A stretch of DNA of 64,000 bases, taken from NCBI GenBank assembly GCA_003223515.1, contig QHVI01000026.1:18345-82344 (forward strand), written 5' to 3'. Under the pieces are notes generated by a model that worked only from the letters and a program-made list of their open reading frames with translations, searched no databases and was not told the DNA's origin. A program made the position numbers and the translations under genes. The DNA is from Candidatus Angelobacter sp. Gp1-AA117 (GTDB taxonomy: Bacteria > Acidobacteriota > Terriglobia > Terriglobales > Acidobacteriaceae). This document shows, piece by piece, positions 1-49,072 of the stretch (positions are counted from its first letter, which is position 1; every line of letters starts with the position of its first letter).

Positions 1-529
1 CGAGATAGAGGCTGGTGTTGGGATGGAAGAAAATCTGCTGGCGCAATGCCGGATCAGCCACAATTTTTTCGGCGAGGTTACAGAGATACTCCATATCCAG
101 CCGGCTGCGGCGCCCGTAGGAGTCGCGGGCTTCGATTTCCAGTTGGGTCTCACTGCCGATCTTGCCCACGGAACAGCCCGCGAACAATCCGAACGGTGTC
201 GGGCGGCTGGTCATGCGGGCTACATAGCGGTAGAGGGATTGCTCGAGTTTCTGTCCTTTTTCGCTCTCGGGGGAACTCCACCACGCCGCAGGGGCCTGGG
301 AAAACTCGGGCGCGGCGATCCATAGCGCCTCCTGCACTTCAGGCCTGCGGACAAACTCCTGCAGCCGCGAGCGCACCAGGCGGCGGTCGGCTTCGATGAC
401 CGGCGCAAGCTCTTCATCCTTGCCCAGTACTGCGAAGGCTGAAAGACCTTGTGAGAGCGCCAGAAATTCTTCAAACGAGAAGAGAGGGGTGCGCAGCACA
501 AAAAAACCCGAGGTGGTGAAGTCGCTCAT
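1..529 (-). CDS. lanB: Lantibiotic dehydratase (LanB-type), N-terminal part; gene continues beyond window start
   Basis: Absent from the ORF track because no stop lies in the window. Hand translation of the minus strand from ATG (529-527) gives MSDFTTSGFFVLRTPLFSFEEFLALSQ...QSLYRYVARMTSRPTPFGLFAGCSVGKIGSETQLEIE..., open to position 1. GFFxLRTPL and RxTPFGLFAG are hallmark N-terminal motifs of the lantibiotic dehydratase family. The ATG overlaps the lanC stop (ATGA at 526-529). Confidence 0.8.
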   Translation of the reverse strand, partial: MSDFTTSGFFVLRTPLFSFEEFLALSQGLSAFAVLGKDEELAPVIEADRRLVRSRLQEFVRRPEVQEALWIAAPEFSQAPAAWWSSPESEKGQKLEQSLYRYVARMTSRPTPFGLFAGCSVGKIGSETQLEIEARDSYGRRSRLDMEYLCNLAEKIVADPALRQQIFFHPNTSLYL

Positions 530-1845
530 TCTTTTGTGGCTGGCGCTGGAGGAAGATCAACGAGAAAAATGCGATCCCAGTCGGGAACCACTGGCTTGAT
601 GGCCGAGAGGTAGGTTAGGCCTACTCCGGCGATGCCCTCGATCAGGCCGAATCTTCCTCTCCAGGAAAGCTCGCCGGTTTTGTCGGAGGTATAAACCGAG
701 TAGCCTGCGGCCCCGGTGCCCGGCTGCCGGAATTTCAGGCTCTCGCTGATCCAGTAGCGTGATCGTTCAGCAAAGGCGAGATCGCGAGTGGCCTGATAAA
801 AGCGGTTGAAGATGTGGGCCAGGCCGGCGGAACCATGACAGAAGCAGATATCGCGCACTCCGGAGCTCTGGACATCACGGCCGACTGAATGGTGCATAAT
901 GTCGAGCGCCGCACTCTCCCAGGCATTCGATCCCGTGCAGCGTGCAGCCTGAAACAAGGTCGCGGCGATGCCGGCATCACCATAACACCATGCCAGGCGG
1001 CAATCCTCCGAGGCACTTTGCGGCATGTGAAAAGTGGAGAAACAGGACTTCGATCCGAAGGGCCGGCGCTGCTGCAAAAACCAGCGCACGGCGCGTTCCA
1101 GCAGATCGCCTGCTTTTTCGCGTGCTATCCCGGCCGCATAAATCTTCGCCAGGACGGCGATGATGCCGGGAACGCCGTGGGCGAGGCCCAGGTTGTAATA
1201 GCCTTCAGGATAGTGTTCCCGCTGGGAGCCGATCAGTAGATCGGGATGAGTGAACCAGCGCGCCTCATCCGGAGTCAACTCCGCGATTTCGTGCAGGCGT
1301 TCGACAATCAGCTCAAGCGCATGCCGCGCCGCAGGCGAATCAAGGCGCTCCAGGCAGTAGACGGCAAGACCTACCAGGCCGACGATCAGGTCATAATCCT
1401 GCTTCCAGGGAGTGTTGCTTACGTAGGTCTGTATGGCAAGATCGATTTCGCTGAGATCTTCCACAGGCTCATGAAGAACACCGGCCACATGCTGCACCGC
1501 CCAGGCTACCCCGGTAAAGCCGCTATAGAGGGAAGGACCCATAGGTTGGCTGGAGAGCGCTTCGACGGCAATATTCAGGTAACGGGAAGAAAACTCGCGC
1601 GCGCCTGGGAACAATCCTGTGGATTCCATGTAGGCGAAATAGACAGCGATGCCGGCCGCGCCTTCCCCCAGTTGGGCTTTGGACTGGAAAGGCGCAGGGT
1701 TTTTATCGTCCGTGTGCCATTCAAGTGCGGACTGAAGTTCGGCATTGATTTCGGCAAGCGAGGCCTGAATTGCCTGGGCCTGCTGATCATCTTCGTGTAG
1801 CAGGGGAGTCCAGGGCGAGGGAAGCGAATTCGAAATCGATGGCAT
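526..1845 (-). CDS. lanC: LanC-like lanthionine synthetase (lanthipeptide cyclase)
   Basis: 439-aa ORF carrying the three conserved LanC motifs GLAHGVPG, WCYGDAG and CHGSAG in the expected order and spacing. Confidence 0.85.
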   Translation of the reverse strand: MPSISNSLPSPWTPLLHEDDQQAQAIQASLAEINAELQSALEWHTDDKNPAPFQSKAQLGEGAAGIAVYFAYMESTGLFPGAREFSSRYLNIAVEALSSQPMGPSLYSGFTGVAWAVQHVAGVLHEPVEDLSEIDLAIQTYVSNTPWKQDYDLIVGLVGLAVYCLERLDSPAARHALELIVERLHEIAELTPDEARWFTHPDLLIGSQREHYPEGYYNLGLAHGVPGIIAVLAKIYAAGIAREKAGDLLERAVRWFLQQRRPFGSKSCFSTFHMPQSASEDCRLAWCYGDAGIAATLFQAARCTGSNAWESAALDIMHHSVGRDVQSSGVRDICFCHGSAGLAHIFNRFYQATRDLAFAERSRYWISESLKFRQPGTGAAGYSVYTSDKTGELSWRGRFGLIEGIAGVGLTYLSAIKPVVPDWDRIFLVDLPPAPATKE

Positions 1846-7783: not shown

Positions 7784-7948
7784 CAGCGTTCATCAGCGGC
7801 AAAAATACGCTCTCAAGAACAGCGCAATCCTCTCGGCCACAAGAAAAGCATCCCGCACAAACCACAGCCAAAAGCCAAGAGCAGAGATCCGATCTCCCGA
7901 TCACCAGGTCTCCCGATCGCCCGATCTTGAATTTACCGATTTACCCAT
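7784..7948. repeat. Mosaic of four short 'word' repeat families in the dnaG-rpoD spacer
   Basis: In order: CAGCGTTCATCAGCGGCAAAAAT; CCACAGCCAAAAGCCAAGAGCAGAG; GATCCGATCTCCCGATCACCAGGTCTCCCGATCGCCCGATC; GAATTTACCGATTTACCCATT. Each family recurs at other intergenic sites in the window. Confidence 0.8.
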
Positions 7949-8225: not shown

Positions 8226-9914
<1,689 letters not shown>

Positions 9915-9987
9915 GCCGGTTTGCGGGCGTGAGCGCCAGCGGGAGCCCGCAGGCGAAATCCTGAACGCAAAGCGGAAGGACCTCAAT

Positions 9988-10024
9988 CCGGTGATCTGGT
10001 GATCTGGTGATCGGATCCGAGATT
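9988..10024. repeat. GGTGATCT-type oligonucleotide array, inverted relative to 10158-10221
   Basis: CCGGTGATCTGGTGATCTGGTGATCGGATCCGAGAT. Confidence 0.7.
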
Positions 10025-10031
10025 GCAAACC

Positions 10032-10064
10032 AAAGGCGCGGCCCACAGCCGCGCCTTTTTCTTT
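10032..10064 (+). terminator. Rho-independent terminator after rpoD
   Basis: AAAGGCGCGGC-CCACA-GCCGCGCCTTT followed by TTCTTT. Confidence 0.75.
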
Positions 10065-10157
10065 CCGCAAAAAGAATTCATATGGACCGCAGCCGCCCTC
10101 GGCTGCGCGGATAATCTCCGCGGTTGTCGAGAGTCTCTCCCAACCAATACTCTTCTG

Positions 10158-10221
10158 ATGTTCCGATGACCCGATTTCCCGATGACCAGATGACCCGATC
10201 TCCCGGTCACCGGATCTCCCG
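10158..10221. repeat. CCGATSWCC-type oligonucleotide array abutting the rhodanese stop codon
   Basis: GATGTTCCGATGACCCGATTTCCCGATGACCAGATGACCCGATCTCCCGGTCACCGGATCTCCCG. Confidence 0.7.
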
Positions 10222-10223
10222 TT

Positions 10224-10574
10224 CTACCCTGAGTGGTGCTTTCCTTCCACCGGCAGCCCAGCTTCCACCCAGCCCTGCTTTCCTTCCGAGTAATCCCTGA
10301 CATTGGTGTATCCCATGGCCGCCAGTTCACGGGCGGCGTTCTCTGAGGCGTGTCAGGTGAGCTTGGCGCAGTAAACCACAATGTCGGCGTTCTTGTCCGG
10401 CAGCAGTTGCGGCGCAAGTTCGCGCACTTTATCCGGCGGCAGGTTGACTGCGCCGGGAAGATGCGAGTGGTTGTAGTATTCCGGAGCCAGCGTCTCCATC
10501 AGGCGGAAGTTGTCTTTGCGGTCGATCTTCTGTTTCAGTTCGTTTCGATCAATGGTGCGAAGTTGGGTTTCCAT
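10224..10574 (-). CDS. Single-domain rhodanese-like sulfurtransferase with an in-frame TGA (10355-10353): selenocysteine candidate or pseudogene
   Basis: The ORF track stops at ...ADIVVYCAKLT. The same frame continues after the TGA as HASENAARELAAMGYTNVRDYSEGKQGWVEAGLPVEGKHHSG, ending at TAG (10226-10224). This completes a ~116-aa rhodanese fold. The TGA sits where relatives with a YCxxxxC loop have Cys. Confidence 0.6.
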
Positions 10575-10782
10575 GCAAGCGTCTCCAGTTCAGGATTGCA
10601 GAATGCATCTTCTATCATTCACTACGATAATGCGCCAACACAACTATGATGAAAGGCGGACAGAGATTGTTTGTCCGCCTGCTGCTGGCGATGGTGGTCG
10701 TCCTGGAGCTTTTTGCTTCCGGCGAATCCGCCTGTTAACTACTTTGCTACTACCTTTTGCACAGCGTATGCCGCTATGCTGC

Positions 10783-11598
10783 ATGCAGATGGCTGTGCGC
10801 ATGACAGTGTTGGCTAGCGGGAGCCGCGGAAACTGCACCGTGGTTTCCAGTTCCCAGGGCAGCATCCTGGTGGATGCCGGACTCTCCTGCCGTGAAACCA
10901 TCAGGCGCATGCGCGCCGCGGGTGAAGATCCGCACCAGCTCCAGGCAATCGTGATCTCCCATGAGCACGCGGACCACGTAGGCGGACTTCAGGTGCTGGC
11001 CCAGAAGCTGAAGCTTCCCATTTACATGACCGGCGCCACCTATCAGAGCTGGCGCAGGTGGGCACGCGACAAGGAAGGGAAGCCCGCCAAACTGGAGCGC
11101 GTGGAATACTTCGAGGCAGGGCGCTCCTTTTCCATCAACGACATCACGATCGTGCCTTTCACTATCCCCCATGATGCCGCTGACCCGTGCGGCTTCACCT
11201 TCAAGGCCGATGGCGTGAAGATCGGAATCGTCACCGACCTGGGTTGCATGACCGCCAATATCAAAGACAACCTGCGCCGCTGTGACGGGCTGATGATCGA
11301 GTCGAACCATGACCTGGAGATGCTGCGCAACGGCCCTTACCCCTGGATGATCAAGCAGCGGGTGATGAGCCGGGTAGGCCACCTCTCAAATTCCGCCCTC
11401 GCGGAATTCTTTCAAACGGACTATGATGGAAACGCCGCATTCCTCGTACTGGCGCATCTCTCCGAGCAAAACAATCACCCGGAGCTTGCCCGCGAGACGG
11501 CGTATCGGGCCCTTGGCGCACGGATGAATCTGTTCCAGTCCAGCGCGCTCATGCTCGCGCAGCAGGACACGCCGTTGCCGCCGCTTTACCTCGGGTAA
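10783..11598 (+). CDS. MBL-fold metallo-hydrolase
   Basis: HxHxDH motif ISHEHADHVGG; N-terminal MTVLASGSRGNCTVV typical of YycJ/PhnP-like MBL proteins. The ORF-track start (10510) overlaps the rhodanese gene. ATGs at 10783, 10789 or 10801 are more plausible. Confidence 0.75.
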   Translation: MQMAVRMTVLASGSRGNCTVVSSSQGSILVDAGLSCRETIRRMRAAGEDPHQLQAIVISHEHADHVGGLQVLAQKLKLPIYMTGATYQSWRRWARDKEGKPAKLERVEYFEAGRSFSINDITIVPFTIPHDAADPCGFTFKADGVKIGIVTDLGCMTANIKDNLRRCDGLMIESNHDLEMLRNGPYPWMIKQRVMSRVGHLSNSALAEFFQTDYDGNAAFLVLAHLSEQNNHPELARETAYRALGARMNLFQSSALMLAQQDTPLPPLYLG

Positions 11599-11669
11599 CA
11601 GGGAATTTCGAGGTGGTATTTTCCCGGGATAGGGGCTATGGTATCGGGCAACAACGAATCTGGTGGAAG

Positions 11670-12095
11670 ATGAAAACCACATGCAGTGATAAGGTCATCG
11701 GCGACATTCTCGCCGGATGGCGCTATGACATCTCCGGCCTCGCGCCTGAAATGCGCGGCGATTACGAGCAGCACCTGGCCGAGTGTGTCCACTGCCATTC
11801 CCGCCAGGTATTACACCGCACCATCGATATTGTGCTGATGATCGTGGCCACGGTTTCGGCCATCATGTTCCTGGTGGCCTTTGGCGCGGTCCGCCACTAC
11901 TCGCCCCGGCACGCCCTGGTGCTGGAACTGATTGCCCTAGCCGGCTTCCTCTTCTTCAGCATCGTGTGGCTGGTAGTAGCTGTAGCTACGCCCGCTCCTG
12001 TAGTGGTTGCCGACGTGGCACGCATTCAGGCCCGCAAGATTCAGGACCGCCTGCCCCGCGAAATCAGGGAACGGCTGCCGCAGGGATTGAAGTAG
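11670..12095 (+). CDS. Membrane protein with zf-HC2-like (anti-sigma-type) zinc-finger motif
   Basis: MKTTCSDK... with HLAECVHC (H-x3-C-x2-C), followed by two hydrophobic helices. Start chosen at the internal ATG 11670. Confidence 0.5.
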   Translation: MKTTCSDKVIGDILAGWRYDISGLAPEMRGDYEQHLAECVHCHSRQVLHRTIDIVLMIVATVSAIMFLVAFGAVRHYSPRHALVLELIALAGFLFFSIVWLVVAVATPAPVVVADVARIQARKIQDRLPREIRERLPQGLK

Positions 12096-45653: not shown

Positions 45654-45817
45654 AAAAGCCGCGAATAACGCGAACCAACGCGAAAGAAGACGCGAATCAG
45701 GAAGAATCGGGTGATCGCCGTGATCGAGAGATCGGGAGATCAGAAAAATGCTGGCCATAGAGATAGAGACGGTGCTCAGCATGTGAGAAAGCGCGAAGCG
45801 CGGCTCACAAGGTTTTA

Positions 45818-47842: not shown

Positions 47843-48106
47843 CTGTCTCCTTTTATCGCTCCGCCGGAAACCATAACTGGAAGATATTTTGCGGCGCAGT
47901 CTGGAAGAACCTCATCTCAGCCGTTTTATTGCCACAATGTTCCAGCAGCGGCTTTGCCCGTTGCACAAAATTCCTGATTTCTTCTGCGGCCTTCTGCTCA
48001 GATGCAAGGATTATAAAATCAGCCGGTGCCCGCATCACAGCTTTTTCTTCGTGATAGAGGCCCCGAACCTTGGAATTATGCAATTATTGATTCTCGATGA
48101 CCCTAT

Positions 48107-49072
48107 CTATGCTGGTGGTTCGTTCCATCCATCTCCCCATTCCACCCTCCGTGCCTCCCTGTACCGCTCCTTCTGTGACTTAGTTATTGTTCGACGTTCC
48201 AGTCCATGAGCCGTGCACAACAGCAGCTTCACATGCCCGCTGAGCTTTTGCGGATGCCTTACGATGCGCGCCCCCGGTGTGGGAAATTCCTCTCGGCTGC
48301 CGACTACGTAAGAAAACTTCTCATCTTCATATCCCAGCGCCCCGTCTTTGAGTTGCCGATGCAGAGATGTCCGCTCCACCCGCTGGGCAAAGTGGCACCA
48401 GTCTCCGGCAGCAGCCATAGGACATTGCAATGGATGGGGACAAGGTGCCAGCAGATGTGCCCCTGCTCCAATCAGCAGCGCCCGCGCAGCATGAATAAAG
48501 CCGAATCCGCGTACCGTACCCGGCTCAATGACTACCAGGAATTGCCGCGCAGCCGCCCACGCCTGCATCACCAGCTTCTCTGCCCCAGCCTGTGATAACT
48601 CGCCGAGAGTATAAGAAATCACCACCAGGTCGTGCAGCTCCGCAGGCACGCCGGAGCGAATGTCCTGCTGCAGCCAGCGCACATCAGGCACTGCTGTACC
48701 CAGGCGTTTGCTCACGTTGATAAGCGCAGCATCACTCTCAACCAGGGTAGCGTGTTGAATGGACGGGAAGACCTGTGCGGCAGCGTGAAGAGCGGTACCC
48801 GGTCCGGAACCGAGGTCAAGCACGCCGCTGATATTGACATCGGGCGCCAGCCTGCGGATTTCAGAGAAGACGTGCAGATTGGCGGAGAAGATCGCGGGAA
48901 CACGCACCGCCAGATACGCCGCCCGCTGCGCTTCAGTATGGATGACCGGGGAAGAGAATTGTCCGGCCTGGTAGCGCTCTGTGAGTTGTGCGGCTGCCTG
49001 TGCCAGGCGCGCTCTGTCTATTCTCTCAACTTCCTTCTGAATCGCGCTCTGTAACGCATCAGGCAGCCGCAT
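48107..49072 (-). CDS. Rsm22-like SAM-dependent methyltransferase
   Basis: MRLPDALQSAIQKEV... with SAM motif VLDLGSGPGT; overall COG5459/Rsm22-like layout. The ORF-track N-terminal extension to 49243 reads through a repeat element and is rejected. Confidence 0.7.
   Translation of the reverse strand: MRLPDALQSAIQKEVERIDRARLAQAAAQLTERYQAGQFSSPVIHTEAQRAAYLAVRVPAIFSANLHVFSEIRRLAPDVNISGVLDLGSGPGTALHAAAQVFPSIQHATLVESDAALINVSKRLGTAVPDVRWLQQDIRSGVPAELHDLVVISYTLGELSQAGAEKLVMQAWAAARQFLVVIEPGTVRGFGFIHAARALLIGAGAHLLAPCPHPLQCPMAAAGDWCHFAQRVERTSLHRQLKDGALGYEDEKFSYVVGSREEFPTPGARIVRHPQKLSGHVKLLLCTAHGLERRTITKSQKERYREARRVEWGDGWNEPPA

Follow-up and report, generated by a model that had tools for sequence, protein, structure and literature searches.

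A rhodanese gene of Candidatus Angelobacter with an in-frame UGA codon that almost certainly encodes selenocysteine

The window, by which we mean the whole stretch of DNA analysed (64,000 nucleotides of Candidatus Angelobacter contig QHVI01000026.1), contains a small rhodanese gene on the minus strand, starting with an ATG at 10574-10572 and ending with a TAG at 10226-10224. Its neighbours are a metB-like gene, dnaG, rpoD (convergent), a gene for an MBL-fold hydrolase (divergent), pyrD, serS and lolA. The original prediction gave the frame as ...ADIVVYCAKLT, an in-frame TGA (10355-10353), HASENAARELAAMGYTNVRDYSEGKQGWVEAGLPVEGKHHSG and a TAG, and a direct read agrees with this throughout; the residues before the TGA are METQLRTIDRNELKQKIDRKDNFRLMETLAPEYYNHSHLPGAVNLPPDKVRELAPQLLPDKNADIVVYCAKLT and those after it are HASENAARELAAMGYTNVRDYSEGKQGWVEAGLPVEGKHHSG. 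The same start methionine is present in homologues in the alignment, and downstream of the TGA an ATG (M88) opens a 30-aa ORF in the same frame. The active-site loop reads C69-A-K-L-T-U74-H-A-S, with U marking the predicted selenocysteine (Sec). The features are as follows.

10224-10574, minus strand: coding region of the predicted rhodanese selenoprotein, 116 codons plus TAG, a single domain (frame read directly; PF00581)
10353-10355, minus strand: in-frame UGA, codon 74, taken on comparative evidence as a probable selenocysteine codon
10368-10370, minus strand: TGC codon for Cys69, which is the catalytic cysteine of canonical rhodaneses and lies five residues ahead of the predicted Sec
10224-10352, minus strand: part of the coding region after the UGA, 42 codons plus TAG, corresponding to the second half of the rhodanese fold
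10583-10586, minus strand: GGAG, Shine-Dalgarno-like, 8 nt before the ATG (read directly)
10318-10337, minus strand: bSECIS-like hairpin with a 6-bp stem (GCCGCC/GGCGGC) and an 8-nt loop, CGUGAACU
10032-10058, no strand assigned: strong hairpin between the convergent rpoD and rhodanese genes, 11 pairs of which 8 are GC (consensus scan only), a probable shared terminator of the two genes

The order rpoD-rhodanese-MBL hydrolase is common to the closest relatives only, so no operon-based function can be drawn from it, and the neighbouring MBL protein is not of the persulfide-dioxygenase type. We note that several intergenic regions of the window contain 8-nt tandem repeats resembling GATCNGGTSATC (at 7891-7926, 9986-10012, 10163-10225, 45705-45741 and 48096-48107), with nine matches where 0.74 would be expected, and TRF arrays were also found. 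Soil metagenome runs cover 10167-10200 about ten times as deeply as the flanking DNA and have many loose ends there, which suggests a dispersed multi-copy family in the source organism or its relatives.

The TGA is confirmed by independent sequencing. Positions 10353-10355 are covered by contigs from four independent soil metagenome runs, one of which represents a strain differing at five nearby positions, and there is no variant at the codon in any of them; the resequencing check proposed in the original prediction thus returns TGA and neither TGC nor TGT. An identical 73-aa N-terminal product has also been called on 17 public contigs from many soils. A sequencing or assembly error hiding a true TGC or TGT has nothing to commend it other than the single-base distance between the codons, and since the four runs and 17 contigs agree, we treat it as excluded, with a probability that is negligible.

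TGA is an ordinary stop codon in this genome segment: of 34 long ORFs in the window, ten end in it, rpoD and serS among them. The code is therefore standard, and TGA does not serve as a sense codon in general. When the window was scanned for other genes with a TGA that might be read through, only antisense or low-complexity extensions came up. One ORF at the left end of the window (526-1845, minus strand, 439 aa) corresponds to a LanC-like (PF05147) gene in a syntenic contig (L082); it is not a read-through candidate because the 101-codon in-frame extension past its TGA is of low complexity.

The product of reading through the TGA matches the Pfam Rhodanese family (PF00581) over residues 11-104, with 57.6 bits against a cut-off of 22.2 (E 1.9e-15), and a single domain therefore spans the TGA. 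The protein modelled was P0002, which is the natural Cys form closest to the window protein (70% identical); with an alignment of 46 sequences it gave a canonical single-domain rhodanese fold with a pLDDT of 92.7. The model has TM scores of 0.82-0.85 to 6mxv and 3nhv, and the lower-ranked matches include YgaP, TSTD1, PspE and GlpE (query TM about 0.63-0.74). Both cysteines of the Cys form lie in the loop between the strand at 61-64 and the helix at 72-82, the second of them, at the Sec position, just before the helix N-terminus. Tyr68 and Cys69 are invariant in the alignment, and Cys/Sec74 and Ser77 are nearly so. The protein is a rhodanese by both domain and active site, as PF00581 scores above its gathering threshold and the catalytic cysteine is at the start of the strand-helix loop.

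A homology search returned two kinds of relatives, full-length proteins that are 55-70% identical and proteins of exactly 73 aa that are 82-93% identical. At the alignment column of the TGA (the Sec column) most full-length proteins have Cys, several JGI-called ones have Trp, and one has Arg. The column could be scored in 100 of the 120 closest database proteins, and in these there are 70 with Cys, 21 with 'W', eight that are cut at this codon and one with Arg. The UGA had been predicted to replace the second Cys of a Y-C-x4-C-x2-S loop, and the 70 Cys homologues bear this out. We regard 29 of the 100 as Sec forms, the eight that are cut and the 21 mistranslated as W, two of which we have verified as TGA. 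These two are P0001 and P0016, which have Trp at the column; code 11 gives no translation for them, and the DNA (L081 and L093) has TGA at the codon, the JGI/Logan Trp calls lying within 803-1174 of L081 and 1501-1833 of L093. The Trp residues are artefacts, since the metagenome gene callers evidently applied a TGA=Trp code to short contigs.

Reading the codon at the Sec column in 80 fetched genome loci and in metagenome contigs gives the same picture at the level of DNA. TGA is present in 34 of the 80 genome loci, in Acidobacteriota, Actinomycetota, Chloroflexota and Binatota, and most of the others have TGC or TGT. The acidobacterial TGA loci (L001-L022) are from Terriglobia, Pyrinomonadaceae, Blastocatellia, Bryobacterales and Sulfotelmatobacter, and the remainder are in Rubrobacteraceae (L026, L028 and L033), Binatus (L064), L070, other Actinomycetota (L071, L073 and L076-L079) and Dehalococcoidia (L080); the metagenome loci L081-L084 and L093 also have TGA. 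The ortholog alignment proposed in the original prediction therefore has TGA or Cys at this position, the two alternating at one alignment column across 87 loci, and past the codon the frame stays open and conserved in all the TGA loci. Two individual cases stand out. One is on a Rubrobacteraceae chromosome (OZ243922.1, L026), where a Cys-form and a TGA-form paralogue are in tandem about 460 nt apart (at 9731 and 10190) and may represent a Cys/Sec isoenzyme pair for differing selenium supply. A second is on an 871-bp soil contig (L089, 141-479) that has AGA (Arg) at the Sec column and keeps a perfect 7-bp hairpin; either Sec has recently been lost there or the contig is a variant of assembly.

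The possibility that UGA is read here as one of the standard amino acids (Trp, Cys or Gly), through a reassigned code or a near-cognate tRNA, is raised by the choice of a TGA=Trp code by the JGI/Logan callers for the 21 close homologues. However, those 'W' calls sit on short metagenome contigs in which the cause can be checked (as in L081 and L093), the terminating TGA codons of the window are those of a standard code, and the column alternates specifically with Cys. The hairpin and the Sec machinery described below also bear on this explanation.

When the search was repeated with a seed from the Binatia/delta clade, it gave more than 100 clusters with identities of 72-100%, almost all of them 80-81 aa long and ending at the TGA. 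NCBI and UniRef list several of these Binatia halves (e.g. P0129, P0147, P0169 and P0194) under the name 'rhodanese-like domain-containing protein' as if they were complete, so that public annotation does not recognise the family as one of selenoproteins. These products of 73-81 aa, annotated by gene callers and by NCBI/UniRef, are what would be expected if the TGA were a genuine stop, with a 73-residue N-terminal fragment being made and the downstream 42 codons either untranslated or translated separately, and the M88 ORF offers a start for the latter. However, the 73-aa fragment ends within the active-site loop, lacking the helix and strands needed for a whole rhodanese fold, and the Cys homologues are contiguous single proteins.

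The pattern of substitution separates these possibilities further. By Nei-Gojobori estimates over 27 related TGA genes, the 32 codons that follow the TGA have a median dN/dS of 0.13 (291 pairs), and the 45 that precede it have one of 0.20. The second half must therefore be translated and constrained, which rules out both a true stop and a pseudogene so far as we can judge. Because the purifying selection acts on the codons right after the TGA, ahead of M88, separate translation from that ATG does not account for it, and we consider the genuine stop improbable, with only a small chance of being correct. A recent pseudogene, in which a TGC or TGT has mutated to TGA and the downstream frame has yet to decay, was the alternative put forward in the original prediction. 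TGA is one substitution from TGC and there are close Cys-form relatives (L085-L088), but the dN/dS after the TGA is lower than before it and the TGA is conserved across four phyla (and in the Binatia clusters), and together these refute it. The presence of the same allele in the 17 contigs from many soils and the conservation of synonymous sites in the hairpin (see below) also speak against recent decay, and the pseudogene is very improbable indeed.

The hairpin downstream of the TGA has the form originally predicted, a GC stem of 6 bp beginning 15 nt after the UGA and a loop containing GU. GCCGCC (10337-10332) is followed by the loop CGUGAACU (10331-10324) and GGCGGC (10323-10318), and the loop begins 21 nt after the UGA. 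The surrounding 71-nt region folds better than shuffled sequences (z -2.5, with 3 of 200 shuffles as good), although this is a weak test by itself, and the statistical weight of the case for the hairpin and for Sec comes from comparative data and not from single-sequence folding. Total folding energy over the 60 nt after the codon does not discriminate TGA loci from Cys homologues (-19.8 vs -19.5 kcal/mol, p 0.95) because all of these genomes are GC-rich, and the whole-region energy was replaced by a local measure, the presence of an uninterrupted stem near the UGA. By this measure, each of the 38 TGA loci has a stem of 5-9 bp without interruptions, beginning 9-16 nt past the UGA, and distant Cys homologues are mostly without one (Mann-Whitney p 1.5e-9, with kinship ignored). 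In the minimum-energy fold of 10290-10360 (minus strand), the segment CCUGACA that holds the UGA pairs with UGUCAGG about 50 nt downstream and forms a lower stem around the hairpin, which looked unconserved in the folds of relatives.

The stems at this place are of three designs that are mutually unrelated in sequence, and the apical loops of all three contain G or GU.

Design 1: GCCGCC-CGKGANYU-GGCGGC, in Acidobacteriota and Rubrobacteraceae, with the loop at 21 nt after the UGA
Design 2: CGRGCCGC-GUG-GYGGCUCG, in other Actinomycetota and Dehalococcoidia, with the loop at 20 nt after the UGA
Design 3: CAGCAGGCG-GUC-CGCCUGCUG, in Binatus, with the loop at 18 nt after the UGA

Within design 1, the 28 related TGA loci provide 168 cells for the six core pairs, and pairing holds in 167 of them. 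The ten stem substitutions are all compatible with G-U pairing, and three of them, which change Ala to Val, arise as GCG to GUG and retain the pairing. Inside the stem, the entropy of third-codon positions is 0.89, 0, 0 and 0.22 bit, compared with 1.5-1.9 bit at nearby four-fold sites, and 1.77 bit at the third position of the Ala codon immediately 3' of the stem. The synonymous sites in the stem are thus frozen, which indicates selection on the RNA beyond that on the protein. With so little variation in the stem, a formal test for covariation gave no significant result (84 of 500 shuffles scored at least as high), and no Rfam family matches the element either at gathering thresholds or in permissive mode. 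The hairpin is still present in the closest Cys forms (L085-L087) and in the Arg form (L089) and is lost in a more distant Cys form (L088); it is therefore not exclusive to TGA genes. From its presence in the close Cys and Arg forms we infer recent Sec-to-Cys or Sec-to-Arg conversion followed by slow decay of the hairpin.

The SECIS of E. coli fdhF is the paradigm of a bacterial Sec insertion element and served as a positive control; the same script places its loop, GGUC, 18 nt after the UGA, compared with 21 nt for the rhodanese of the window. Both hairpins lie in the coding region immediately 3' of the UGA and both have G-U in the loop. There is no sequence similarity between them, however, and the rhodanese hairpin consists simply of a 6-bp GC stem and an 8-nt loop, with no evident bulged U.

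No tRNA gene was found in the 64-kb window, and tblastn with E. coli SelA, SelB and SelD gave no match there. In relatives, genes for Sec machinery are found close to the TGA form. One example is L004, in which SelB is encoded 3 kb downstream of the rhodanese gene (8694-10613; TIGR00475, 400 bits against a cut-off of 242). In a second example, L079, a SelD gene adjoins the rhodanese gene (10822-11916; TIGR00476, 381 bits against a cut-off of 125), and tRNA-Sec genes are present in L018 (9176-9273, 730 nt upstream of the gene) and in L007 (15691-15789). These are four unrelated genomes in which selB, selD or tRNA-Sec is less than 10 kb (about 0.6-9 kb) from the TGA-form rhodanese, and no SelB, SelD or tRNA-Sec gene was found beside the Cys-form loci. 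The adjacency may reflect co-transfer of the machinery with the selenoprotein, or it may be that the protein takes part in selenium handling. Acidobacteria with selenoproteins have already been recorded (PMC1794560). The failure to find Sec machinery within the window could be taken to favour a standard amino acid at the UGA, but selB, selD and tRNA-Sec lie beside the gene in relatives and the SECIS-like hairpin is conserved, and incorporation of Trp, Cys or Gly has little probability.

We conclude that the UGA at codon 74 almost certainly encodes selenocysteine, as judged from sequence comparison. The gene combines a conserved UGA followed by a frame under selection, homologues with Cys aligned to the UGA, and a stem-loop at a constrained distance with G in its loop; the original suggestion of a selenocysteine candidate is thus strengthened by the conservation of the TGA, the dN/dS, the hairpin geometry and the resequencing. 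We consider it highly probable that the gene as a whole encodes a 116-residue single-domain rhodanese selenoprotein, with hairpin-driven insertion of Sec74 and a putative two-chalcogen site composed of Cys69 and Sec74. On the comparative evidence, the UGA at codon 74 would not be read as a stop during translation; the hairpin at 10337-10318 would act as a bacterial SECIS, recruiting SelB-GTP-Sec-tRNA(Sec) to the ribosome, and selenocysteine would be inserted at codon 74. Cys69 would then be kept at the start of the active-site loop with Sec74 at its end, and the motif and the structural model suggest that the most likely chemistry is that of a two-chalcogen redox or transfer site. A persulfide or selenium adduct on Cys69 could be attacked by the more nucleophilic Sec74, and the resulting Cys-S-Se-Sec selenenylsulfide could then be resolved by a thiol reductant. 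In the Cys-form homologues the equivalent step would presumably be slower and proceed via a disulfide.

Rhodanese-related sulfurtransferases were claimed at the outset to be among the prokaryotic selenoprotein families, and the literature confirms this; they have been listed since the Sargasso Sea study of 2005 (PMC1088965), and a 2026 review (PMC13188914) gives five forms: form 1, UxxS; form 2, UxxG; form 3, CxU (NF041203); form 4, UxxG; and form 5, TsoB, UxxxxU (NF045694). The rhodanese of the window is like the published rhodanese selenoproteins (Zhang, Gladyshev) in its PF00581 domain, in its putative UGA-encoded Sec and in having Cys-containing homologues, as well as in a predicted thiol/selenol-based sulfur or redox function. 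It differs from form 4, as described from the Sargasso Sea, in which Sec replaces the catalytic Cys (...IYTY-U-QAGVRAA...; PMC1088965 supplement), as here the catalytic Cys69 is kept and the predicted Sec is at +5. The catalytic Cys is likewise kept in comparison with form 2, which is set apart by its UxxG motif only. Form 1 is given by the string UxxS, with a Geobacter protein (WP_010941598.1) as its example (PMC13188914), and the U-H-A-S of the window protein fits this string; the comparison is by motif string only, and identity of the window rhodanese with form 1 is possible. No Geobacter protein came up in the homology search that took its seed from the deltaproteobacterial/Binatia clade.

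Two of the published forms are represented by curated NCBIfam models. The first, NF041203 (rhodanese_LYCAU, form 3), also describes small single-domain rhodaneses with Cys and Sec in the active-site loop, but the window protein scores 45.7 bits against a cut-off of 115, and its predicted Sec is at +5 whereas that of NF041203 is at +2. The second, NF045694 (TsoB), is the best-scoring NCBIfam model, with an E-value of 1.5e-14 over the rhodanese part of the profile, and by motif string both have two chalcogen residues five apart (C-x4-U here). However, the window protein reaches 53 bits where the cut-off is 805, and TsoB is a rhodanese/DsbD-like fusion of about 572 residues with two Sec, whereas the window protein is a 116-residue domain with a single predicted Sec and with Cys as the first of the pair. 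Membership in either NF041203 or NF045694 was rejected, as the scores are below the curated cut-offs and the Sec site differs. PspE, GlpE, YgaP, TSTD1 and the 6mxv and 3nhv structures share the fold, the HxPGAxN motif and the position of the catalytic Cys, but their loop is two residues shorter (CGSGFRS compared with CAKLTUHAS) and has no second Cys or Sec.

The putative Sec site, C-x4-U-x-x-S, thus fits neither of the curated NCBIfam rhodanese selenoprotein models, and it differs from three of the five published forms. What is new here is a member, and possibly a Sec-site form, as both UGA-Sec recoding and rhodanese-type selenoproteins are known and no new mechanism is involved. It is possible, although we lean slightly against it, that the C-x4-U-x-x-S rhodaneses constitute a distinct and uncatalogued Sec-site form that is widespread in soil, is mis-annotated, uses a Cys-Sec selenenylsulfide cycle and perhaps has a role in selenium handling.

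The findings correct a systematic annotation error in public data, in which this family is truncated in NCBI and UniRef and has 'W' in JGI. With hundreds of entries being N-terminal halves or containing a spurious Trp, the selenoproteome of Acidobacteriota and Binatota, both abundant in soil, is undercounted. To study what selenium contributes to persulfide or selenium transfer, the natural Cys/Sec pair at a position of the rhodanese loop that is not itself catalytic would be convenient. If the form is indeed distinct, it would be one that is widespread in soil Acidobacteriota, Binatota, Actinomycetota and Chloroflexota, with the catalytic Cys retained and Sec at the end of a longer loop, and the repeated adjacency to selD, selB and tRNA-Sec could mean that the protein has a role in selenium handling itself.
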